Positions 49,939 to 60,423 are shown, counted from the stretch's first letter. The stretch: DNA of 64,000 nucleotides from Hyphomonas sp. (GCF_036964145.1 NZ_JBALUC010000005.1:83012-147011); one strand, 5' to 3'. Program-made: numbers and translations. Notes: generated by a model from the letters alone, not told the origin.

Positions 49939-50075
49939 GCTTGAGGTGTGTCACTTAAGCGGCCAGCCCAGCCACCGCAACATCACCTGCACACGCTTCA
50001 TCGCGCTCACGAAATTACTCTGCAAGTAATCCGGCTCGCTGACGGCGCGGATGTTTGGGAACTTCGTTGGCAAGC

Positions 50076-50165
50076 GCAGAGTGGGTTGAGCGGAGCGATA
50101 CCCACCGTGCCGTGTCTGCGGCGAGTCCGGTTGGTGGGTATCGGCGTTGCCCGGGCCCACCCTCC
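50076..50165. repeat. Inverted REP doublet of GTAG-like type
   Basis: GCAGAGTGGGTTGAGCGGAGCGATACCCACC and the inverted copy GGAGGGTGGGCCCGGGCAACGCCGATACCCACC share an 11-bp perfect inverted repeat (50096-50106 / 50133-50143). Confidence 0.7.
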
Positions 50166-50248
50166 CCCCGCACATTGCCGCCGCAGCCACTGTCACCGCC
50201 CACCGGCTCGACATTGCCACGCCCCGCCTCCAGCGCTAATCCCCCCTC

Positions 50249-50479
50249 ATGACTGACAGCCCTTCACCAGACTCCGCCCGCCTCGACGAGCTTGAAATGC
50301 GTGTGGTCCATCAGGACCAGACGATTGAGGATTTGAACGCGGCCATCACCGCGCAATGGAAGCTGATTGAGCGGCTGGAGCGGCAGGTTGCGCGCCTCGC
50401 CGAACGCGTCGCCGACAGCGAGCAGTCAACCGGCCAGGCGGCCCCCGTGGACCGGCCCCTCATTACTAAGGGCGCATGA
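50249..50479 (+). CDS. slyX: SlyX family protein with frameshifted C-terminus
   Basis: RLDELE.R...QD..IE.LN..I..Q; the family's terminal PPHY motif is present but out of frame. Confidence 0.85.
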   Translation: MTDSPSPDSARLDELEMRVVHQDQTIEDLNAAITAQWKLIERLERQVARLAERVADSEQSTGQAAPVDRPLITKGA

Positions 50480-50539
50480 CGAGCTTGCCACGCCCGCACA
50501 GCGTCATAGAGTGAATCCTCCATATTGGGAGGACACGGA

Positions 50540-51010
50540 ATGATTCAGAAATTTGCACTCACGGCAGCCCTGACAGGCGCACTCATGGCGGGGGCTGCGC
50601 CTGCAGCCCATGCGGGCCCGGACGCATATCTCGGCGAGATCATGACGGTGGGCTTCAATTTCTGTCCACGGGGCACGCTGGAAGCCGATGGCCGCCTGCT
50701 GCCGATCAATGAGAACACCGCCCTCTTCTCCCTGCTCGGAACACTCTATGGCGGCGACGGGCGCACGACGTTTGCCCTGCCCGATCTGCGCGGGCGCGTT
50801 GTGGTGGGCGCAGGCCAGGGCCTCGGCCTGACCGACCGCCGGCAGGGCGCGCGCGGCGGCACGGAGTCTAACATTGCCGGCCCGGCGCTTGCGCATGATG
50901 GCGCGGCAAACCCGCTCGGCGACTCCGCCGCCGGCAACAATATGCCACCACCCTGGCTCGCGCTGAAACACTGCGTCGTGACGCAAGGCATTTATCCGTC
51001 GCGAAGCTAG
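50540..51010 (+). CDS. Secreted phage-tail-collar domain protein (MdpB-like)
   Basis: Signal peptide; YLGEI...FNFCPRG...DG.LL.I.ENTALFSLLGT.YGGDGRTTFALPDLRGR; QGIYPSR. Confidence 0.88.
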   Translation: MIQKFALTAALTGALMAGAAPAAHAGPDAYLGEIMTVGFNFCPRGTLEADGRLLPINENTALFSLLGTLYGGDGRTTFALPDLRGRVVVGAGQGLGLTDRRQGARGGTESNIAGPALAHDGAANPLGDSAAGNNMPPPWLALKHCVVTQGIYPSRS

Positions 51011-51066
51011 GCGGGCCGGCCCGGGAGATTGCGAGCCTGCTGGATACATCCCGCGCTCTCCTCATG

Positions 51067-51231
51067 CGTCACCCCCGGCCGCGATAGCGGTCTGGGGGCC
51101 CAACTCTGACCACGGCGGCGGGCGCGTCATGTGCCGCCCCGCGCGCAGGCGCTGCAGAAAGCGCCGCGCGCTGCTGTGGCGAATTCAGGAGATGGGTCTC
51201 CGGAGGGCCTCCCCATCGCGGAGGATGACGG
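51067..51231. repeat. CGTC-tagged inverted REP doublet (~165 bp), same family as those flanking the GIY-YIG gene
   Basis: CGTCACCCCCGGCCGCGATAGCGGTCTGGGGGCCCAACTCTGA and the inverted CGTCATCCTCCG...CCGGAGACCCATCTCCTGAA. Confidence 0.75.
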
Positions 51232-51277
51232 AGGCAAGATATCCGACAGGCCTCCCCACCATGCCACACTCCGCCGC

Positions 51278-51658
51278 ATGGACCCGGCCTATCGCCCCTT
51301 CTTTGCCCATGTGTGGGCCTTCTGCTGGCCGTGGCTGTGGTGGAACCTTGCGCGACTGACGGCCTGGCGCAAACGCACGGGGCGGCGCGTCTTCGTCTCG
51401 GTCGATAAATACGGCAATGTCTTCATCCGCTATATCGGCGATGCGCCGAGGCCGGACAATGCCTACACCTACACGCCGCCGCGTGTGCCGCGCTGGCAGA
51501 ACCCGTCGCTGGCAAGCGACCTGCCCTGCGGCCTCGATGTACCGTCCGATTTTGTAAGGACCACTCCGTACATCTTATGGACACTTTATGGACCAGTTCG
51601 GGACCAGTTCGGCAACGCGCTGATCAGCCGGGTCAGCCCGGCCCGCGCACCGCCCTGA
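51278..51658 (+). CDS. Hypothetical Trp/Pro-rich protein (126 aa)
   Basis: MDPAYRPFFAHVWAFCWPWLWWNL... ending RAPP; the upstream extension in the ORF track runs through the REP doublet and is probably not coding. Confidence 0.6.
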   Translation: MDPAYRPFFAHVWAFCWPWLWWNLARLTAWRKRTGRRVFVSVDKYGNVFIRYIGDAPRPDNAYTYTPPRVPRWQNPSLASDLPCGLDVPSDFVRTTPYILWTLYGPVRDQFGNALISRVSPARAPP

Positions 51659-51726
51659 CCGCTGCCTTCCTGTAATTCAGCCTATATAACCGGACGGCCC
51701 CGCCGCTCCGGGCACAGGTGCTGGCC

Positions 51727-51751
51727 GGAACGATTCCATTACACCGCCGTT
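51727..51751 (+). promoter_or_regulatory. General-stress ECF (sigmaT/EcfG) promoter
   Basis: GGAAC-N16-CGTT exact consensus about 55 nt before the ATG at 51806. Confidence 0.7.
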
Positions 51752-51805
51752 ATCTTCGCGAGCCGCGCCTTTTGCGGCACAGTAACAAGAAGGAAACTCT
51801 CGCTC

Positions 51806-52102
51806 ATGAGTACAGGAAAAGTCGTAGGAATTGTCGTCGCGGTCGTTGCAATTGTCGGGGCCGTCTGGGTCGCCACAACGCTGATCGATGTGGACCAGAC
51901 CGAACCGGGCAAACTGCCGGATGTGGATGTCGCCATTGACGCCGAAGCCGGCAAGATCCCCGAATATGATGTGGACACCGGCGAAGTGGAGGTTGGCACC
52001 GAAACCGAGACCGTCCTCGTTCCTGAAGTCGTGATGGTCGAAGAAGAGGTCGACGTGCCGACCGTCGATGTGGAAGAACCGGAAGACGACCGCGAGGAAT
52101 AA
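51806..52102 (+). CDS. Small acidic membrane-anchored protein
   Basis: N-terminal TM then D/E/V-rich DVDQT...LPDVDV...PEYDVDT repeats; AAGGA RBS. Confidence 0.8.
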   Translation: MSTGKVVGIVVAVVAIVGAVWVATTLIDVDQTEPGKLPDVDVAIDAEAGKIPEYDVDTGEVEVGTETETVLVPEVVMVEEEVDVPTVDVEEPEDDREE

Positions 52103-52155
52103 TCGCGCACATTTGAGCCGGACGCCCTGAACACGGGGGCGCCGCAGGAATTCGG

Positions 52156-52185
52156 AACGGCGGGCAATGAAACTTGCCCGCCGTT
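52156..52185 (+). terminator. Hairpin after acidic protein gene
   Basis: AACGGCGGGCAA-tgaaac-TTGCCCGCCGTT. Confidence 0.6.
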
Positions 52186-52306
52186 TCCGTGTGCGCGGCA
52201 CAGTCAGCGCGCATTGGGGCCGCGAAATTTTGATCCAGGCCGCTGAACCAAAGTCTGCGGCGCGCGTTGAGTGCGCAGTGTCTGCCGGAGGAAAGGATCC
52301 CCGCTC

Positions 52307-52930
52307 ATGAAACGCTCCCTGCTTGTTCCCGCTATGGCCGCCCTGTTCCTGGCCGCCTGTTCCGATGATGCCCCGGAAACCCGGACTGCGCCGCAGGACC
52401 CGGTCCAGCCCTATGCGGATGATGTCGACATCGCCCCTGCCCCGGATGAAGAAGAGACCTTCACCGACACGATAGACCGGGAAGACATGGTCGCCTCCGG
52501 CCCGAATCTTCTGGACGCCGTAGCCGCCGATCCGCGCCTGTCCACGCTGTATGGCGCCATCGAAGCGGCCGGTCTCGACGAGACCCTCGCCACAGGTGGG
52601 CCGTATACGATTTTCGCGCCGACCAATGACGCCTTCGACGCCCTGCCTGAAGGCCAGCTCGAAGACTATCTGAAGCCCGACAATACCGACAAGCTGGTCC
52701 GGATGCTGGAATACCATATTGTCGAAGGCGAAGTGCGCGCTTCCACTGTGCCACCTGCCGAAGAGGGCGTGCCCACGGCCAGCCTGAACGGGCTCGACCT
52801 GTCGGTGCGGGACATGGGCGGCGGCCAGCTGATGATCAACCAGGCCAGCATTCTCGAAACCGATGTCGAGGGCGGCAATGGCATCGTCCATGTCATCGAC
52901 TCCGTGCTGGTGCCGCGCGAGACCGAATAG
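52307..52930 (+). CDS. Fasciclin (FAS1) domain lipoprotein
   Basis: Lipobox FLAAC; GPYTIFAPTNDAF, L.YHIV, NGIVHVIDSVL. Confidence 0.92.
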   Translation: MKRSLLVPAMAALFLAACSDDAPETRTAPQDPVQPYADDVDIAPAPDEEETFTDTIDREDMVASGPNLLDAVAADPRLSTLYGAIEAAGLDETLATGGPYTIFAPTNDAFDALPEGQLEDYLKPDNTDKLVRMLEYHIVEGEVRASTVPPAEEGVPTASLNGLDLSVRDMGGGQLMINQASILETDVEGGNGIVHVIDSVLVPRETE

Positions 52931-52950
52931 GTTTGCGCTGCAACGCATGT

Positions 52951-52965
52951 GAACAAATAGAGAAA
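52951..52965 (+). promoter_or_regulatory. Probable alphaproteobacterial LexA box of ruvCAB
   Basis: GAAC-AAATAGA-GAAA, one mismatch to GAAC-N7-GAAC. Confidence 0.6.
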
Positions 52966-53008
52966 ATGCAAGGTGTCATTAACCCATCCCGCTGATAGGA
53001 TGGGCGCC

Positions 53009-53512
53009 ATGACCGTCACGATTCGTATTCTCGGAATTGATCCCGGACTCCGCCATACCGGCTGGGGCGTGATCGAGCAGACCGGCGCCCGGCTTGCCCA
53101 TATTGCACATGGCGTGATTTCGGTTGACCCCGGCCTCGCCATGTCGGAGCGGCTTGGCGGCATCTTCGAGGCGGTCGGCGAACTGGCCCGGCATTACGGC
53201 CCGCATGCCTCGGGCGTGGAGGAAACGCTGGTCAATGCCAATCCCCGCTCGGCGCTGAAGCTTGGCCAGGCACGCGGCGCAGCCATGGCGGCGCTGTCCA
53301 TGGCCGGTGTTCCCGTCGCCGAATTTGCCCCGCGCAAGATCAAGCTGGCTATTGTTGGCACGGGCACGGCCGACAAGGACCAGGTGGCCTTCATGGTCAA
53401 ACGCCTGCTGCCCCGCGCTGGAGAGATGAAATCGGACTCTGCTGACGCCCTTGCCTGCGCAATCTGTACCGCCCACCATCTGCCGCTGGACCTGAAGCGG
53501 GGCGCGGCATGA
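53009..53512 (+). CDS. ruvC: Holliday junction resolvase RuvC
   Basis: RILGIDPGL..TGWG, LGQARG, K.QV..MV..LL, D.ADALA.AIC. Confidence 0.96.
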   Translation: MTVTIRILGIDPGLRHTGWGVIEQTGARLAHIAHGVISVDPGLAMSERLGGIFEAVGELARHYGPHASGVEETLVNANPRSALKLGQARGAAMAALSMAGVPVAEFAPRKIKLAIVGTGTADKDQVAFMVKRLLPRAGEMKSDSADALACAICTAHHLPLDLKRGAA

Positions 53513-54132
53513 TCATTGGCAGGCTGACCGGGACCGTCGCCGCCCTCGGCACGGACAATATCCTGATTGACGTCAATGGCGTCGGCTATGTTTGCATGGC
53601 CGGCACACGGCTCTTGTCCAAGGTCCATGTCGGCGAGACCAGCGTGCTGCATGTCGAGACCAAGGTCAGCGAAGCGGCAATCACGCTCTATGCCTTCGGC
53701 TCGGATGAGGAACGCGCCTGGTTTGTCCGCCTGCAGGATGTGCATGGCGTGGCTGGCAAGGCCGCAATGGCGATCCTCGATGCAATCACGCCAGCGGAAT
53801 TGATGGATGCCATCGCGCTCGGAGATGCCTCCGTGCTGACGCGGGCGAAGGGCGTCGGCAAGAAGCTGGCCGAGCGGATCACGGGCGAACTGGCTGGCAA
53901 GCCGCCGCCGATGGGCCGGTTCGGCAAGTTCGAGACTGCGCAAGTCGCCGGCCTAGCCAGCGCGCCCGTCGCCGCAACCACTGGCGTGCGGAGCGAGGCG
54001 ATCTCGGCGCTTGCAAACCTCGGCTATGCCCAGTCCGATGCTGCCCGCGCCGTGGCCAGCGCCGCGAAGGATGCCGGGGACGATGATGTCAGCCTCCTGA
54101 TCAAGGCGGCCCTCAAGGAACTCGCACGATGA
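53509..54132 (+). CDS. ruvA: Holliday junction branch migration protein RuvA
   Basis: [32 protein letters not shown]. Confidence 0.96.
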
Positions 54133-55157
54133 GCCGTGAGGGCACCGTTTCTGATCCCAATGCGCAAGGTGGCGACGCGCTGGACCGCGCGCTGCGCCCG
54201 CAGGCGTTTGATGATTATGTCGGGCAGCGCAAGGCAAAATCGAACCTCAAAGTCTATGTCGATGCGGCCCGCAAACGCGAAGAGGCGCTGGACCATGTCC
54301 TCCTGTTCGGCCCGCCGGGGCTCGGCAAGACGACGCTGGCGCAGATCCTTGCCCGTGAAATGGGCGTCGGCTTCCGCGCGACCTCCGGCCCCGTCATTGC
54401 CAAGGCGGGTGACCTGGCGGCGATCCTGACAAATCTCGAGCCCAATGACGTCCTCTTCATTGACGAGATCCACCGCCTGCCGCCGGTCGTGGAGGAAATC
54501 CTTTATCCGGCGATGGAGGATTACGCCCTCGATATTGTCATCGGCGAAGGCCCGTCCGCGCGGTCGGTGCGGCTGGACCTGTCCCCCTTCACCCTTGTCG
54601 GCGCCACCACCCGGGCCGGCCTGCTCGCAACGCCGTTGCGTGACCGGTTCGGCATCCCGATGCGGCTCGAATTCTATGAGCCGGAAGAACTGGCCCGCAT
54701 CGTCATGGCCGCAGCGCGCAAGCTGACCGCGCCGATCACGGAGGAAGGCGCCGTCGAGATCGCCAGCCGCGCGCGGGGCACGCCGCGTATCGCGCTGCGC
54801 CTGCTGCGCCGGGTACGGGACTTTGCCGAGGCCGATGGCGGATCTATCACCCAGGAATCGGCGGCGAGCGCGCTGAAACGGCTGGAAATCGATTCCGATG
54901 GCCTCGATGCGCTGGACCGGCGCTATCTCCATGCGCTGGTGAAAACCTATGCCGGGGGGCCGGTCGGCGTGGAAACGCTGGCGGCGGCCCTGTCGGAGGC
55001 GCGCGATGCGGTGGAAGACGTGATCGAGCCTTACCTGATGCAGAAAGGCTATGTCGCCCGCACGCCGCGGGGCCGGGTTGCGGCGCCTCTGGCCTATGAA
55101 CGCCTTGGCCTCCCGAGTCCTGGCGGGCAGCAGACGGGCCTGTTCGGCGAAAAATAG
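54129..55157 (+). CDS. ruvB: Holliday junction branch migration helicase RuvB
   Basis: [34 protein letters not shown]. Confidence 0.97.
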
Positions 55158-55254
55158 CCCCCTGCCCGGCGGGGTACGTAGTTTTCCCGATTCCGCGCGG
55201 CTGCGCCCCATGTCCTGATAGGGTCAGACACACCAGATCAGGGAGCCTATCCAC

Positions 55255-55497
55255 ATGTCTCACACCCCCCACGAACTCGTCGAGGAATTCCCGGACGCCG
55301 CCGAGCGCATCCATGCGCTGAAGGAGACCGACGGACATTTTGCCCGCCTCGCCGACGACTATCATGAGGTGAACCGCCAGATTCACCGCATCGAGACAAA
55401 TGTGGAGCCGGCAAGCGATGCCTTCCAGACCCAGCTGCGCAAGCACCGCATGGCGCTCAAGGATGAAATTCACACCATCCTGACCGCCCCCGCCTGA
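55255..55497 (+). CDS. DUF465/YdcH family protein
   Basis: MSHTPHEL.EEFP..AERIHALK..D.HF..L...Y...N..IHR.E...RM.LKDEI. Confidence 0.88.
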   Translation: MSHTPHELVEEFPDAAERIHALKETDGHFARLADDYHEVNRQIHRIETNVEPASDAFQTQLRKHRMALKDEIHTILTAPA

Positions 55498-55519
55498 GCG
55501 GATATGAGGGAACCGGATC

Positions 55520-55648
55520 ATGGGTAATCTGAGCGTTGATGCCCTGGCCATTGCCGCCCTTTTCGGCTTTGCCAGCCTGTTGCTGATCGGGGCCGGCCTG
55601 ACGGCGTGGCTGTGGAAACAATCCGGCAAGTCCGAAGGGGATTTGTAA
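55520..55648 (+). CDS. 42-aa single-TM small protein (absent from ORF track)
   Basis: GAGGGA RBS; MGNLSVDALAIAALFGFASLLLIGAGLTAWLWKQSGKSEGDL-stop fills the gap between the two DUF465 genes. Confidence 0.65.
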   Translation: MGNLSVDALAIAALFGFASLLLIGAGLTAWLWKQSGKSEGDL

Positions 55649-55662
55649 GCGGAGCCGAGAAC

Positions 55663-55902
55663 ATGACGCACCATATCGGAGAACTGGTCGGCGAGTTCCC
55701 GGACGCCGTGGACCGCATTCTCGAACTGGAATCGACCAATCCGAGATTCTCGGATCTGGCCGATGCCTATGATGAGACCATGGACGCCCTGCAACAGCTC
55801 GAATGCCGGCTGGACCCCGCCGCCAGCGAGGAGGAATGCGCGCGGCTGCACCGCCGCGAAGTGGAACTCCTGCAGGAACTCTGCACCCTCCTCGTGAGCT
55901 GA
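55663..55902 (+). CDS. DUF465/YdcH-like paralog
   Basis: MTHHIGELVGEFPDAVDRI.EL...NPRF..LAD.Y, clearly similar to 55255-55497; GGAG RBS. Confidence 0.75.
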   Translation: MTHHIGELVGEFPDAVDRILELESTNPRFSDLADAYDETMDALQQLECRLDPAASEEECARLHRREVELLQELCTLLVS

Positions 55903-55925
55903 GATTGTTCGGAGACAGAGATATT

Positions 55926-56107
55926 TGTCATCCCGGAATGTGCGCCAGCAAATAGCCGGGAGCCTGCGCCGATAGCTTCGTGCGCACCCGTCATCCTTCA
56001 ACTTCGCTCAGGATGAGTCCTTGCTTTATGCGCGCTCATGCTGAGCGAAGTCGAAGCACGGACGCGGGCTGTGGCCGGATAAGCGCGGTGCGCTTTCCGG
56101 GATGACA
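55926..56107. repeat. Nested inverted REP doublets (182 bp)
   Basis: Outer 13-bp terminal inverted repeat TGTCATCCCGGAA (55926-55938 / 56095-56107); inner pair TCATCCTTCAACTTCGCTCAGGATGA (55991-56016) and TCATGCTGAGCGAAGTCGAAGCA (56036-56058). Confidence 0.8.
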
Positions 56108-56608
56108 GGATTGCGGGGTTGATGTCCTCCCTGCACAAACATCCGGACTGGCACTCGCCATCCGGGTATCCCTCATTCCAGCTCCGCGAGGCGAAGCCGA
56201 GGCGCGGCGGGCGCCGTGGCGCTCCGCCTTGAGTTTGGAATGGCTACGGAATGGAGCGTTACCGCCCGCCGCGCCGGCCAGGAATTTCGGCGAGCACCCT
56301 CAAGGGGGCCCATGGTCCCGGGTCTTCGTTACCGGCGCCGCGCGAACGGATCCATCGTGCTTTCCCACGCATGGCCCATCCGGGGATTGCTCCCGGGCTG
56401 CCGGACGAGGCGGATTCCCAACTTGCTTTCGCAAGCCCACCCTGGCCTGACCTGCCTAGGCGCGCATCGGACCGTCGCCCCGACCCGCACCCTCCTGACC
56501 CTGCCCCCACAACCAGAACGGTACCTGATCCGGCTCCTGTGAGAGCAGATGCTTAGTATGGGGTAAGGGGGTATCAGGCGGATACGGGATCAAAACCTCA
56601 CCTCCGAA

Positions 56609-56698
56609 GATACCTGCGAATGCAGGTATCCATCTCCTGCTGCTCCCTCATGCACAGGAGGAAACATCCGGAGATGGGCCCCTGCCTCCGCAGGGGCC
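56609..56698. repeat. Degenerate inverted REP doublet
   Basis: TACCTGCGAATGCAGGTATCCATCTCC and the inverted CCCCTGCGGAGGCAGGGGCCCATCTCC. Confidence 0.7.
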
Positions 56699-56784
56699 TG
56701 CGGGGAAGCCTATCTCTCTCCCACAAACACCGCTTCCCCGGCATGCGCCGGAGAGGCGGGGAGAGGAAACCGTCTTTCCTCACG

Positions 56785-56940
56785 CGTCATCCCCGACGCG
56801 CAGCGTCTGGGGACCCATCTCTGAAAGATGCCCCCGGAACGTCCTGCGCGGTGAAGGGATTGCGGGCGTGCAATGCCCCTCGCTCATATGGCGTCGTCCC
56901 GTGATGCCCCCCAGACCGCCAATGCGGTCGGGGGTGACGC
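56785..56940. repeat. CGTC-tagged inverted REP doublet downstream of GIY-YIG gene
   Basis: CGTCATCCCCGACGCGCAGCGTCTGGGGACCCATCTCTGAA and the inverted CGTCACCCCCGACCGCATTGGCGGTCTGGGGGGCATC. Confidence 0.85.
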
Positions 56941-56959
56941 CAGGAGTGCAGACCGCTCC

Positions 56960-57262
56960 CTACCCCGTGATCTCGAACCACAAATCCTTCCAATGAGGAT
57001 TGCGCTCCGTGATCAGATTGATCTTGCTCTTCCGCCGATAGGATTTCAGGGATTTCTCACGCGCAATCGCTCTGCTGATCTCATCATGCAGTTCGTACCA
57101 GACAAGCATCCGGCAGCCATGCGTCTTGGAAAAGCCCCGGAACACGCCTTCGCGGTGTTGCCAGACGCGCTGGACAAGGTGGGACGTGACCCCGGTATAG
57201 AGCGCGCCCTGCTTGCGATTGGCCATCATGTAGACGGCAATTATGCGGTCCTCATTGGCCAT
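56960..57262 (-). CDS. Stand-alone GIY-YIG nuclease (100 aa)
   Basis: AVYMMAN...ALYTGVT..L..RVWQHR...AIAREKSLK...NPHWKDL; catalytic Tyr/Arg/Glu/Asn positions intact; GGGAG RBS. Confidence 0.93.
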   Translation of the reverse strand: MANEDRIIAVYMMANRKQGALYTGVTSHLVQRVWQHREGVFRGFSKTHGCRMLVWYELHDEISRAIAREKSLKSYRRKSKINLITERNPHWKDLWFEITG

Positions 57263-57306
57263 GCCCAGCTCCCTTCCCAAACCTCCCTACACAAGAACAA
57301 AAATTG

Positions 57307-57468
57307 CGTCATGCCCGATGGCCGCAGGCCATCTGGGAACCCATCTCTGAACGATATTACAGAGAACGTCATGCGCCGTGTGGAGAAACTCGCACGCCCC
57401 CGCACCGGACGCATCCGGTTGCCCCGTTCAGCGATGGGCCCCCAGACGCTGCGCGTCGGGGGTGACGC
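57307..57468. repeat. CGTC-tagged inverted REP doublet upstream of GIY-YIG gene
   Basis: CGTCATGCCCGATGGCCGCAGGCCATCTGGGAACCCATCTCTGAA and the inverted CGTCACCCCCGACGCGCAGCGTCTGGGGGCCCATCGCTGAA. Confidence 0.85.
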
Positions 57469-57570
57469 CAGGAGGAGAGGATGGCCCCTTCACTTCCCTG
57501 CTAGGGCAAAATAAAAACTCTCCAACCGACAGCCACAACGAGCCATAACCCAATAAACGATCTGAGCTCC

Positions 57571-58668
57571 CTAACTCATCCACCTCAACACCCGCGCCTC
57601 AATCGGGTTCGCGAAGTCGCGCCCTTCTGTCCGGCATTCCGTCCACTCACGTTTTAGCCGCTGGTACCATTTGGCCTGGATGTCGATGTCGTCGATCCAC
57701 ATCATGGCTTTCTGGTGGGCCATGCCCTGATTTTGCAAATCCACCATGTCGCCATCCTGGCGCAGGAATTTGCGGGCCATCGGCTTGGCGATGGGCACGG
57801 CGAGGTGGAGCAGCGGCGCGCCGGTCCACCAGGTGAACTGGGTGATCCGTGTGCGTTTCGGGGCCTCAGGCGTCAGGCAGGTGAGCGTCAGCAGGCGGGC
57901 CTTGTCATTCGAGATGATCTCCCAGCGATAGCCGGGCAGCTGGAACCGGATCTCGGTTTCCACATCATCCCCGAAGACCCAGCGATACAATTTCGAGTTC
58001 GAGCTGGGCGGATGGCGGTCAATCGCCCAGCCGCGCTCCGTCGGGATGAAGGGCTTTTCCTTCAGCTTCAGGCCCACGGAAGGCGGACGCCACCACCATT
58101 GATTGTGCACGAAGGGCACATGGGCCGGGTCCATCAGGCCGACCACGGCATCATCCATATGGGCGTTGAACACGTCATGGATGACAAAGCCGGGCTTGTC
58201 CGGCAGCGGGCCGAATTCCGGTGGCGGCACGGCGGGGGGCGTGTCCGCGCGGGGATTGTGGGCGACATAGAGATAGACCGCGCCATTGGCCTCATGCACC
58301 GGATAGCGGCGCACTTTTACCCTGGACGGGTCATAGGGGCTGTCGTCGGTGAGGGACGGCATCAGCTTGCAGCCGCCATCCGTGCCAAAGCGCCAGCCAT
58401 GATACGGGCATTGCAGCGTCCACTCGCCATCGGTCTCCAGCTGCTGGCCCGCAGACAGCGGCACGAGGCGGTGGGGGCAGATGTCGCGCAGGGCGAACGC
58501 CTCCCCTGCCGGGGTGCGGCCGACCACGACAGGCTCTCCCAGCACCATGATGCGATGCTGCTTGCCCGGGGCCAGGTCGGTCGACGGGGCCGCGAGATAC
58601 CAGCTGTCGGTGAGGTAGCCCTCCTCGGTGATGCCCGTCTTGGGCGCGGTGTGTTGTGTATCTGGCAT
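57571..58668 (-). CDS. Rieske non-heme iron oxygenase (VanA-like alpha subunit)
   Basis: CPHR...CPYHGW Rieske motif; DPAHVPFVH mononuclear iron motif. Confidence 0.9.
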   Translation of the reverse strand: MPDTQHTAPKTGITEEGYLTDSWYLAAPSTDLAPGKQHRIMVLGEPVVVGRTPAGEAFALRDICPHRLVPLSAGQQLETDGEWTLQCPYHGWRFGTDGGCKLMPSLTDDSPYDPSRVKVRRYPVHEANGAVYLYVAHNPRADTPPAVPPPEFGPLPDKPGFVIHDVFNAHMDDAVVGLMDPAHVPFVHNQWWWRPPSVGLKLKEKPFIPTERGWAIDRHPPSSNSKLYRWVFGDDVETEIRFQLPGYRWEIISNDKARLLTLTCLTPEAPKRTRITQFTWWTGAPLLHLAVPIAKPMARKFLRQDGDMVDLQNQGMAHQKAMMWIDDIDIQAKWYQRLKREWTECRTEGRDFANPIEARVLRWMS

Positions 58669-58833
58669 GGGCAGGACCGGTCTTGTGACGATGGTCCCTG
58701 ATTACCGCATTTGACCGGGGGGAACCAGAGCGCGGGCTGTCGCGGGACTGCGCCCCGATCCGGGCCGAATATTGCCAGCGCGGCGATTGGCAATAAGGTG
58801 TCGCCTTTGGTGAGGACACTGAGGGGGAGCGGC

Positions 58834-60423
58834 ATGGCCGAGACAGCAGTCAACAAGGGATTCCTGGGATGGGTGGAGAAGACAGGCAACCGCCTGCCGG
58901 ACCCGGTGTTCCTGTTCTTCTATTTGATTATTGCCCTGATGGTGATCTCGCAGATCGCGGCCTGGGCCAGCCTCACGGCGCCGCACCCGACCCAAATAAC
59001 CGAGGCAGGCACGCCGCTGGTGATCGAATCGGCGAGCCTGTTCTCGGCCGAGAACATCCAGCGCCTCTGGGTGGAGATGCCGAAGACGTTCACCCACTTC
59101 CATCCGCTCGGCTATGTTCTGGTCGTGATGCTGGGCGCGGGCGTGGCCGAGCGCTCAGGCCTGTTCTCCAGCGCGATCCGCGCGGCGGTGCGCAATGCGC
59201 CGAAATTCCTGCTGACGCCGCTGGTGGCGCTGGTGGCGATGCTGTCGAACCATGCCGCCGATGCCGGCTATGTCGTGATGATCCCGCTGGCGGGCATATT
59301 GTTCGCCTCGGCCGGGCGCCATCCGCTGGCCGGGATCGCGGCGGCGTTTGCGGGCGTGTCGGGCGGGTTTTCCGCCAATATCTCACCGGGCCAGTTGGAC
59401 GCGCTCCTGTTCGGCATAACTGAGGCAGCCTATGGCGCGAGCAATATCGACGCCGGATGGGCCATGAACATTGCCGGCAACACCTATTTCATCATCGCAC
59501 TGCTGGTGATCTACCTGCCGGTTATCTGGTATGTGACCGACAAGATCATCGAGCCTCGCCTTGGCACATGGATTCCGGGGCCGGAGGCCGCCGTGCAGGC
59601 GGGCGATGAGGACAAGCCCCTCACCCGGGACCAGCAAAAGGGCCTGCGCATGTCAGGGCTGGCTGTGCTGGGCGTGTGCGCGCTGTGGGCGTTGATGACG
59701 TTCGGGCCGGGCACGCCGCTGCTGGCCGATGGGCCGGGCACCGAGGGCGACCCGTGGTACCAGAAGGCCGGACCGTTCTTCCGTTCCCTCGTCGCAGGGT
59801 TCCTCGTCCTGTTCCTCGCCGCAGGCTGGGCCTATGGCGCGGCGGCCAACACGATCAACAATCACCGCGACCTTGTGAACATGATGGCCGAGGCAATGAA
59901 GGATATGGGCTATTATCTCGTGCTGGCCTTTGCGGCGGCGCATTTCGTGGCGATGTTCGGCTGGTCGAACCTTGGCCTGATCTCGGCCGTGCACGGGGCC
60001 GATGCGATCCAGAACAGCGGCCTGCCGCTGCCGATCGTGCTGGGCCTGATCGTATTATTCTCGGCGTTGCTGAACCTGTTTGTCGGCTCGGCGAGTGCGA
60101 AATGGGCGCTGCTGGCGCCTGTGCTGGTGCCGATGCTGATGCTGCTGGGGATCAGCCCGGAAGGCGCAACGGCAGCCTATCGCGTCGGGGATGGCGCAAC
60201 CAATATCATCACGCCGCTGATGGTCTACTTCCCGCTGATCCTGGTGTTCGCACGGCGCTGGCAGGATGATTTCGGCCTGGGCAGCCTGACAGCGATGATG
60301 ATTCCCTATTCGGTCTGGATGCTGCTGACGGGTGTCGTGCTGATGATGGGGTGGATTTTCCTCGGCATGGATTTCGGGCCCGGCGCCCCGGCGCATATCA
60401 CCGTGCCGGGTACGGGCGGGTAG
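58834..60423 (+). CDS. AbgT family transporter
   Basis: EKTGNRLPDP, FHPLG.VLV.MLGAGVAE, GRHPLAG, SAKWALLAP, AYRVGD..TNIITP. Confidence 0.94.
   Translation: MAETAVNKGFLGWVEKTGNRLPDPVFLFFYLIIALMVISQIAAWASLTAPHPTQITEAGTPLVIESASLFSAENIQRLWVEMPKTFTHFHPLGYVLVVMLGAGVAERSGLFSSAIRAAVRNAPKFLLTPLVALVAMLSNHAADAGYVVMIPLAGILFASAGRHPLAGIAAAFAGVSGGFSANISPGQLDALLFGITEAAYGASNIDAGWAMNIAGNTYFIIALLVIYLPVIWYVTDKIIEPRLGTWIPGPEAAVQAGDEDKPLTRDQQKGLRMSGLAVLGVCALWALMTFGPGTPLLADGPGTEGDPWYQKAGPFFRSLVAGFLVLFLAAGWAYGAAANTINNHRDLVNMMAEAMKDMGYYLVLAFAAAHFVAMFGWSNLGLISAVHGADAIQNSGLPLPIVLGLIVLFSALLNLFVGSASAKWALLAPVLVPMLMLLGISPEGATAAYRVGDGATNIITPLMVYFPLILVFARRWQDDFGLGSLTAMMIPYSVWMLLTGVVLMMGWIFLGMDFGPGAPAHITVPGTGG

Follow-up and report, generated by a model that had tools for sequence, protein, structure and literature searches.

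Ssn is a family of single-domain GIY-YIG proteins of ~94 aa (cd10448; Chenal et al. 2025, Nat Commun 16:2388, PMC11893778). It was demonstrated that these enzymes bind CGTCAT-tagged hairpins solely as ssDNA and cut just upstream; for SsnA, it is the tagged strand that is bound as ssDNA, and cleavage occurs upstream of the hairpin. The repeat called NTS is CGTCATTCCCGCGMAVGCGGGAATCYRG, and the broader class of such hairpins was termed 'Ssn-related motifs' (SRM). Repeats are present on both flanks of ssn genes in 42% of homologues, across phyla, and N. meningitidis SsnA reduces the integration of NTS-flanked transforming DNA. Mobilisation of the repeats by Ssn was raised in the same work as a hypothesis only (PMC11893778).

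Short CGTC-tagged stem-loops had been described before as CGTC REPs (Di Nocera, De Gregorio, Rocco 2013, BMC Genomics 14:522, PMC3733652). They predominate in Alphaproteobacteria, in subsets that vary in stem, loop and tail, and occur mostly as head-to-head dimers with spacers of 20-100 bp that are often conserved. According to this survey, CGTC REPs have no dedicated transposase, as the initial annotation of the DNA analysed here had correctly stated; since the survey looked at transposases, it found no associated enzyme gene. The CGTC-1 elements of Neisseria are the dRS3 repeats (PMC3733652), out of which NTS was later defined (PMC11893778). Therefore, CGTC REPs and SRMs belong to one kind of element, whose protein partner is Ssn. 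This equation was not found stated in PMC3733652 or PMC11893778 and, because the text of the latter mentions neither RAYT nor REPIN nor the 2013 CGTC survey, the link has been implicit in the literature; it is offered here explicitly, between the SRMs of 2025 and the CGTC REPs, the 'transposase-less' superfamily of 2013.

The nuclease gene and its flanking doublets

The window, that is, the whole stretch of 64,000 nucleotides of Hyphomonas DNA that was analysed, contains an intact ORF with an ATG start on the minus strand at 56960-57262. It encodes 100 aa, and GIY-YIG (PF01541) was the sole Pfam match of the protein (E 3.3e-12, residues 9-82), so the gene was as initially annotated. No other credible gene lies between the Rieske oxygenase gene (57571-58668, minus strand) and the repeat tract to the left of the ORF. 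The site is chromosomal and intergenic, with the Rieske oxygenase gene on one side and repeat DNA on the other, and does not lie in an intron or a phage.

The protein was compared by BLASTP with the NTS-flanked 94-aa protein that public sources name N. meningitidis GIY-YIG, which was one of the homologues from a Neisseria-genus search and was identified by this name and not by the accession CAX49033.1. The identity was 53% over 90 of 94 aa (E 4e-36), to be set beside the E < 1e-10 and cover of at least 75% by which SsnA homology was defined in PMC11893778; the length of 100 aa lies within the range of Ssn nucleases (single-domain GIY-YIG, 150 aa or less). Homologues surrounded by canonical NTS, found in a search of 41 Neisseria-genus genomes, were 52-58% identical to it, and genes abutted by NTS at two loci in two other phyla, found by an exact-NTS scan of public genomes, were 51% identical. 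When the protein was aligned with NTS-flanked homologues from Neisseria and elsewhere, Y11, Y22, R32, H36, E69 and N88 were invariant, and the GIY and YIG tyrosines and the metal-binding Glu are kept. Considering that dN/dS relative to congeners was 0.06-0.27, the gene is under constraint, i.e., purifying selection. Judged by the Pfam domain, the Neisseria homology, the invariant residues and dN/dS, the 100-aa protein is a member of the Ssn family, and its gene is hereafter called ssn.

Other assignments of the protein were rejected. UPF0213/YhbQ proteins (PDB 1ZG2, B. halodurans BH0048) are of similar size and consist of the GIY-YIG domain alone, but this identity was rejected on domain content, and the sequence match was marginal (E 0.066); it was the only match in a PDB sequence search, in which no solved Ssn structure was found. 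In addition, the UPF0213-type gene of N. lactamica is free of a flanking SRM. A GIY-YIG homing endonuclease (I-TevI, Seg) was rejected because the protein is a single 100-aa domain with no extra DNA-binding domain. A RAYT was likewise rejected on domain content: the protein is a GIY-YIG protein that lacks the Y1 transposase domain of the IS200/IS605 type (HUH motif, catalytic Tyr). A search against NCBIfam with the 100-aa protein gave no match.

The gene is bracketed by two head-to-head doublets. The left one, downstream of the gene (56785-56946, 162 bp), consists of two CGTCA-tagged hairpins with the tags outermost and terminates in GTGACGCCAGGAG; the right one, upstream of the gene (57307-57474, 168 bp), is the counterpart of a solo doublet in the relative G049. 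Inverted doublets had been annotated here before, with sizes of 156 and 162 bp; the doublets are present, and the annotated sizes and start were a few bases off. In the left doublet, the outer hairpin (56785-56825, plus strand) reads CGTCAT-CCCCGACGC-GCA-GCGTCTGGGGA with the tail CCCATCTCTGAA and has one bulged T in its stem and a dG of about -15 kcal/mol, and the inner one (56908-56939, minus strand) reads CGTCAC-CCCCGACCGC-ATTG-GCGGTCTGGGGG, with its tag toward the stop codon of the gene, about 20 nt off. In the right doublet, the inner hairpin (57307-57338, plus strand; CGTCAT-GCCCGATGGCC-GCA-GGCCATCTGGGA) has its tag toward the gene start, 44 nt upstream of the ATG, and the outer one (57427-57467, minus strand) reads CGTCAC-CCCCGACGC-GCA-GCGTCTGGGGG with the tail CCCATCGCTGAA. 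Accordingly, CGTCA tags start at 56785 and 57307 on the plus strand and at 56939 and 57467 on the minus strand. A Neisseria locus (L130) has the same order as the window, [+ -] gene [+ -] with gene-proximal CGTCAY tags.

All four hairpins begin with CGTCA (dG -15 to -19 kcal/mol) and share one design: CGTCAY, CCCCGA, a variable inner stem, a loop of 3-4 nt and TCTGGGG, with one T left bulged. The inner stems show compensating changes (CGC/GCG, CCGC/GCGG, TGGCC/GGCCA), and the tail CCCATCNCTGAA follows three of the four hairpins. The left and right doublets as whole units are direct repeats spaced by 522-528 bp. Their 55-nt arms (56784-56838 and 57414-57468) show 85% complementarity, both units have the same 20-nt end, GTCGGGGGTGACGCCAGGAG (56927-56946 and 57455-57474), and the spacers, of about 94 and 102 nt, are conserved in part from one unit to the other; a spacer motif was found at 56739 and again at 57367. 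Matching arms across the gene, homologous spacers, a common end and duplication of the doublet as a unit had all been proposed in the initial annotation and were all found. A third copy, proposed at 51067-51231, is real as a solo doublet 5.7 kb from the ssn cassette (51067-51230), but its similarity is partial: one hairpin is of the same type (51067-51098, plus strand), its partner (51197-51230, minus strand) has diverged, and the copy had a blastn similarity of 87% over 32 nt. This solo doublet is conserved in the relative G052 (L277).

The type-specific pattern CGTCAYNYYCGRN{7,16}TCTGRG had six matches in the 3.53-Mb genome, of which four were at the ssn locus; the reversed-pattern control had zero matches in the same genome, so the occurrence of the hairpins exceeds chance. 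The published SRM pattern, HGTCWYN(0-2)YYVSBRHN(0-5)WNVSBRGN(0-2)RNCYNB, matched none of the four flanking hairpins, with 3 matches elsewhere in the window and 32 in the genome. The four were missed because their stem is longer and contains a bulged T, and the pattern, which was made by hand from 29 genomes, permits neither. This failure reflects the limits of the pattern and does not count against Ssn membership.

Compared with the published system (PMC11893778), the locus has in common a single-domain GIY-YIG protein of about 94-100 aa with its catalytic residues kept, hairpins whose C-rich stem is preceded by a 5' CGTCAY tag, flanking doublets on either side that are oriented as in Neisseria, and a patchy distribution with its own repeat type per clade. 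It differs from Neisseria NTS in the longer stem (9-11 bp), the constant bulged T (..GA-stem / stem-TCTGGGG), the conserved 3' tail CCCATCTCTGAA, the longer doublet spacers (about 95-100 nt vs about 46 nt) and the copy number, with six hairpins in this genome vs hundreds of NTS in Neisseria. Like CGTC-tagged REPs (PMC3733652), the repeats are short CGTC-tagged stem-loops in head-to-head dimers with the tags outside; unlike those of the 2013 survey, they are associated with a gene, that of a GIY-YIG nuclease. Therefore, the locus is very probably an Ssn cassette of the published NTS-ssnA-NTS type with a head-to-head CGTCA-tagged doublet on each side, and the flanking repeats are a Hyphomonas variant of Ssn-related motifs, i.e., CGTC-tagged REPs. 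By homology, the protein would bind the tagged strand of each hairpin when it is single-stranded and would hydrolyse it a few bases 5' of CGTC, sparing duplex DNA and RNA.

Since the family, its targets and this layout were all published in 2025 (PMC11893778), the locus adds little in these respects; the partnership of hairpin and nuclease is real but, for the same reason, not new. It had been proposed for this locus that a small GIY-YIG family is the cognate nuclease of CGTC hairpins and disperses MITE-like units. The former part holds, by the experiments on the family, while the latter is a hypothesis only in PMC11893778. The variant hairpin, with its longer stem and constant bulged T, broadens the candidate Ssn specificities for ssDNA tools.

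Ssn genes and their hairpins in Hyphomonas

An Ssn homologue was found in 22 of 41 Hyphomonas genomes (0-5 copies each). In the protein tree, the nuclease of the window belongs to a clade (100/99 support) whose members are flanked by the hairpin type described above in 10 of 11 cases, and a second nuclease group is flanked by YGTCAT-CCCGG...CCGGGA hairpins in six of seven cases. Within the clade of the window, the hairpin variant CCTCGA...TCTGAGG follows one subclade, and most of the 10 intact members have an upstream hairpin with the inner stem GATGGCC...GGCCATC or a close variant. A hairpin lies 14-115 nt upstream of the start codon in 10/10 of these intact members and often just past the stop codon as well. 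Thus, nuclease phylogeny and flanking repeat, whose comparison the initial annotation had suggested, correspond. Enrichment near homologues, which it had also put forward for testing, was seen for tagged hairpins: a strict tagged hairpin lay within 250 nt of 28 of 74 wider homologues vs 0/74 with shuffled flanks, and its orientation among the wider homologues was mainly tag-proximal (28 vs 7).

The genome that contains the window (G000) has three small Ssn paralogues: the window gene, paralogue 1 (C1:40583-40870) and paralogue 2 (C1:667120-667404). The latter two belong to a third clade, which has neither of the two hairpin types. Paralogue 2 is bracketed by direct copies of another doublet, CGTWTC-TCCGGCG-MAC-GCCGGAG..., in the form of direct ~105-bp repeats at C1:666960-667070 and C1:667405-667510; therefore, the doublet-gene-doublet layout recurs with another repeat type.

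The number of hairpins of the window type per genome had a median of 7.5 (range 1-54) in genomes with the cognate clade vs a median of 2 (range 0-34) in those without (one-sided Mann-Whitney p = 0.003, genomes being counted without phylogenetic correction). G057 had 54 hairpins, including at least seven exact copies of one flanking its ssn gene. The correspondence of nuclease presence and repeat number, which the initial annotation had put forward for testing, was found in the medians but is leaky: G072 (34 copies) and G079 (12 copies, 100% complete) have no Ssn homologue, and G077, with 21 copies, has a non-cognate clade only.

With six copies, four of them at the ssn locus, the window type in G000 does not amount to a high-copy REP family, and its copy number is far lower than in usual REP families (congeners have 0 to 54). 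Because of these six copies, a genome-wide role comparable to that of NTS, of which Neisseria has hundreds, is not evident here. A k-mer census of G000 revealed no abundant REP family: the top 12-mers had at most 41 copies and were coding-like, and the top 16-mer had 22 copies. A permissive census of the tag plus any hairpin gave 1106 matches in this 60% GC genome and was too unselective for use. At C1:918523-918557, a doublet has collapsed to one hairpin with both tags, by a deletion between CCCC repeats, and the full doublet is kept at this site in two relatives, G052 (L275) and G049 (L278). At C3:369763-369921, a doublet of the first type is half overwritten, such that its first half-hairpin is followed by a complete doublet of the second type, YGTCAT-CCCGG; the orthologous site in G049 (L280) has an intact first-type doublet. 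Six hairpins, one collapsed doublet and one half-overwritten doublet indicate that the window hairpin family is decaying in G000.

Gain and loss of the cassette

The Rieske gene is single-copy in 41/41 genomes, and the cassette lies beside it only in G000 and its nearest relative, G052. In the next relatives, G049 and G076, the Rieske protein is 95% identical; G049, which has no Ssn at all, has one solo doublet at the Rieske site with the same outer flanks, and G076 has one solo hairpin there. Filled and empty sites, for which a search in related Hyphomonas had been suggested, are thus both present. Because the filled and near-empty sites differ by the gene and one doublet, it was concluded that the cassette was gained or lost as that unit beside a resident doublet; this pattern of gain and loss is demonstrated by the comparison. 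The presence of a solo doublet at the empty site is equally compatible with insertion and with loss through recombination. Cassettes of the window clade were found at six or more unrelated loci in the genus, all cassette-free in G000. Two of these loci are clean short intergenic sites in G000, but the intergenic DNA there has diverged too far for insertion boundaries or target duplication to be read. An excision or circle junction of the same strain was not seen in public metagenome contigs, in which the cassette was in place and which cannot show rare forms. An additional trace of an Ssn gene was noted at G063:C42:41977-42251, where a fragment of 31 residues, 61% identical to residues 70-100, adjoins a first-type doublet, probably as the remains of a cassette that has decayed.

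Same-strand tags are about 525 nt apart and enclose one doublet plus the gene (plus strand, 56785 to 57306; minus strand, 57467 to 56940). If Ssn were to cut an exposed strand at both of its tags, exactly the unit that separates filled from solo sites would be freed. Gain and loss may have come about through recombination of the direct repeats with each other or along a single-strand route begun by Ssn cuts; the former would explain the pattern without the enzyme. GIY-YIG nucleases hydrolyse DNA and are not known to form the covalent intermediate by which HUH transposases rejoin it, and therefore any rejoining would need other (host) factors. Taken together, the data from the genus speak for a cassette of gene and doublet that is mobile and for a positive but leaky link of repeat number to the nuclease. 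Ssn may disperse gene-less doublets, but this is unproven. The low, decaying copy number in G000 speaks against an obligate link between nuclease and dispersal, and so do the genomes that are rich in repeats but have no Ssn. Persistence of a selfish cassette, control of motif-bearing incoming ssDNA as in Neisseria and help in spreading the doublets are candidate roles in Hyphomonas.

Three explanations of the association between gene and hairpins were weighed. At least five other types of dispersed repeat form a mosaic in the 1.7 kb from 55900 to 57600, and 3/3 Ssn paralogues of G000 are located in such repeat islands, so a GIY-YIG gene might simply sit in a repeat-rich intergenic hot spot where hairpins accumulate for unrelated reasons. 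Such a coincidence is extremely unlikely: it is already contradicted by the match of clade to repeat, the same hairpin type standing beside clade members at six unrelated loci and changing with the nuclease clade, and further by the four of six genome copies at the ssn locus, the absence of hairpins from shuffled flanks and the hairpin binding shown experimentally for the family (PMC11893778). A service to the host, as in Neisseria, may be entertained as a tentative possibility. According to this explanation, the enzyme moves nothing but cuts motif-bearing ssDNA that arises in transformation, conjugation or replication, and the hairpins are self-marks or autoregulatory sites. The lowered integration of NTS-flanked DNA by N. 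meningitidis SsnA (PMC11893778) and the purifying selection on ssn agree with it, and the constant hairpin before the start codon and the frequent one after the stop codon would suit regulation or termination. However, six target hairpins in G000 make a genome-wide marking role weak, and the patchy presence and the six or more insertion loci in the genus look selfish or horizontally moving and less like a core function.

These same insertion loci speak for an analogue of the REPtron (RAYT with GTAG REPs/REPINs), in which Ssn would take the place of RAYT, without being an HUH enzyme, and would excise and disperse CGTC doublets; the cassette with the gene would be autonomous, and the solo doublets would be its non-autonomous derivatives. 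The idea was also raised in PMC11893778. As in REPtrons, the enzyme gene is bracketed by its own hairpins, gene-less doublets are dispersed, and enzyme clade and repeat type covary; moreover, doublet and gene are enclosed by same-strand tags, hairpins are commoner with the cognate clade, G057 contains exact copies of its ssn-flanking hairpin, and a second-type doublet has replaced half of a first-type one in G000. Nevertheless, dispersal by Ssn in this manner is unlikely, in view of the decaying family in G000, the abundant copies in G072, G079 and G077 outside the cognate clade, the lack of phylogenetic correction in the count correlation and the metagenome contigs, which yielded no junction but cannot show rare forms. 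The systems also differ in fold, in chemistry (GIY-YIG hydrolysis, with its need for other factors in rejoining, vs the HUH covalent phosphotyrosine) and in tag (CGTC vs GTAG), and evidence of strand transfer was not found here. More specifically, the SRM-ssn-SRM cassette might be an autonomous single-strand mobile element that operates with a hydrolytic GIY-YIG nuclease: cuts 5' of two same-strand tags would release doublet and gene as ssDNA, which would re-enter beside a resident doublet, with gene-less CGTC doublets as non-autonomous offspring. This proposal is quite improbable as it stands, but if true, such an element would be the missing mobiliser of the 'orphan' CGTC REP superfamily. 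Hyphomonas, with matched clades and hairpins, 0 to 54 copies, and filled, solo-doublet and empty sites, offers a compact natural test bed, and its comparison could decide whether Ssn moves or merely reads its repeats.

Other repeats around the Ssn genes

Scans of window positions 50000-60000 for Rfam families and tRNAs revealed nothing credible. Next to the cassette, a hairpin CCTCTCCGGCGCATGCCGGGGAAG at 56738-56770 represents the type that, in doublets, stands on both sides of Ssn paralogue 2. The window segment 56143-56742 belongs to a repeat of about 450-640 nt that is dispersed over the genome in five or more copies (C5:243304-243942, 84%; C1:40891-41423, 90-95%; C1:91368-91867; C4:103556-104243; and two contig ends); it had no Rfam match and no credible ORF. 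The copy at C1:40891-41423 is broken by an 8-N assembly gap (C1:41106-41113). This repeat also adjoins Ssn paralogue 1 and the REP in G076 and lies near an Ssn gene in G070. At 56596-56703, there is a doublet of GATACCTGC..GCAGGTATC and GGCCCCTGC..GCAGGGGCC, both with the tail CCATCTCC, which is 85% identical to C1:40403-40511, just upstream of paralogue 1.

Further to the left, window positions 55987-56070 contain a head-to-head doublet of a different hairpin, CTCATCCTGAGCGAAGTCGAAGGATGA. It is the most abundant repeat in G000, with about 15 loci genome-wide, 4 of which are within 1.7 kb of the three Ssn paralogues. This doublet is bracketed by YGTCAT-CCCGG...CCGGGA hairpins at 55926-55961 (plus strand) and 56074-56107 (minus strand); about seven copies of this type are present in G000, and the second Ssn group, beside which it stands in other Hyphomonas, is absent from this genome. 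Two adjacent small ORFs of similar length precede these repeats, of which the first (55255-55497) matched DUF465 (E 8e-15) and the second (55606-55902) had no Pfam match. Finally, in G045 (L139), an Ssn of the window clade was found at the locus where G000 (C1:39692-43633) has paralogue 1, which is only distantly related; in these two species, one and the same repeat island is occupied by Ssn genes of different clades.
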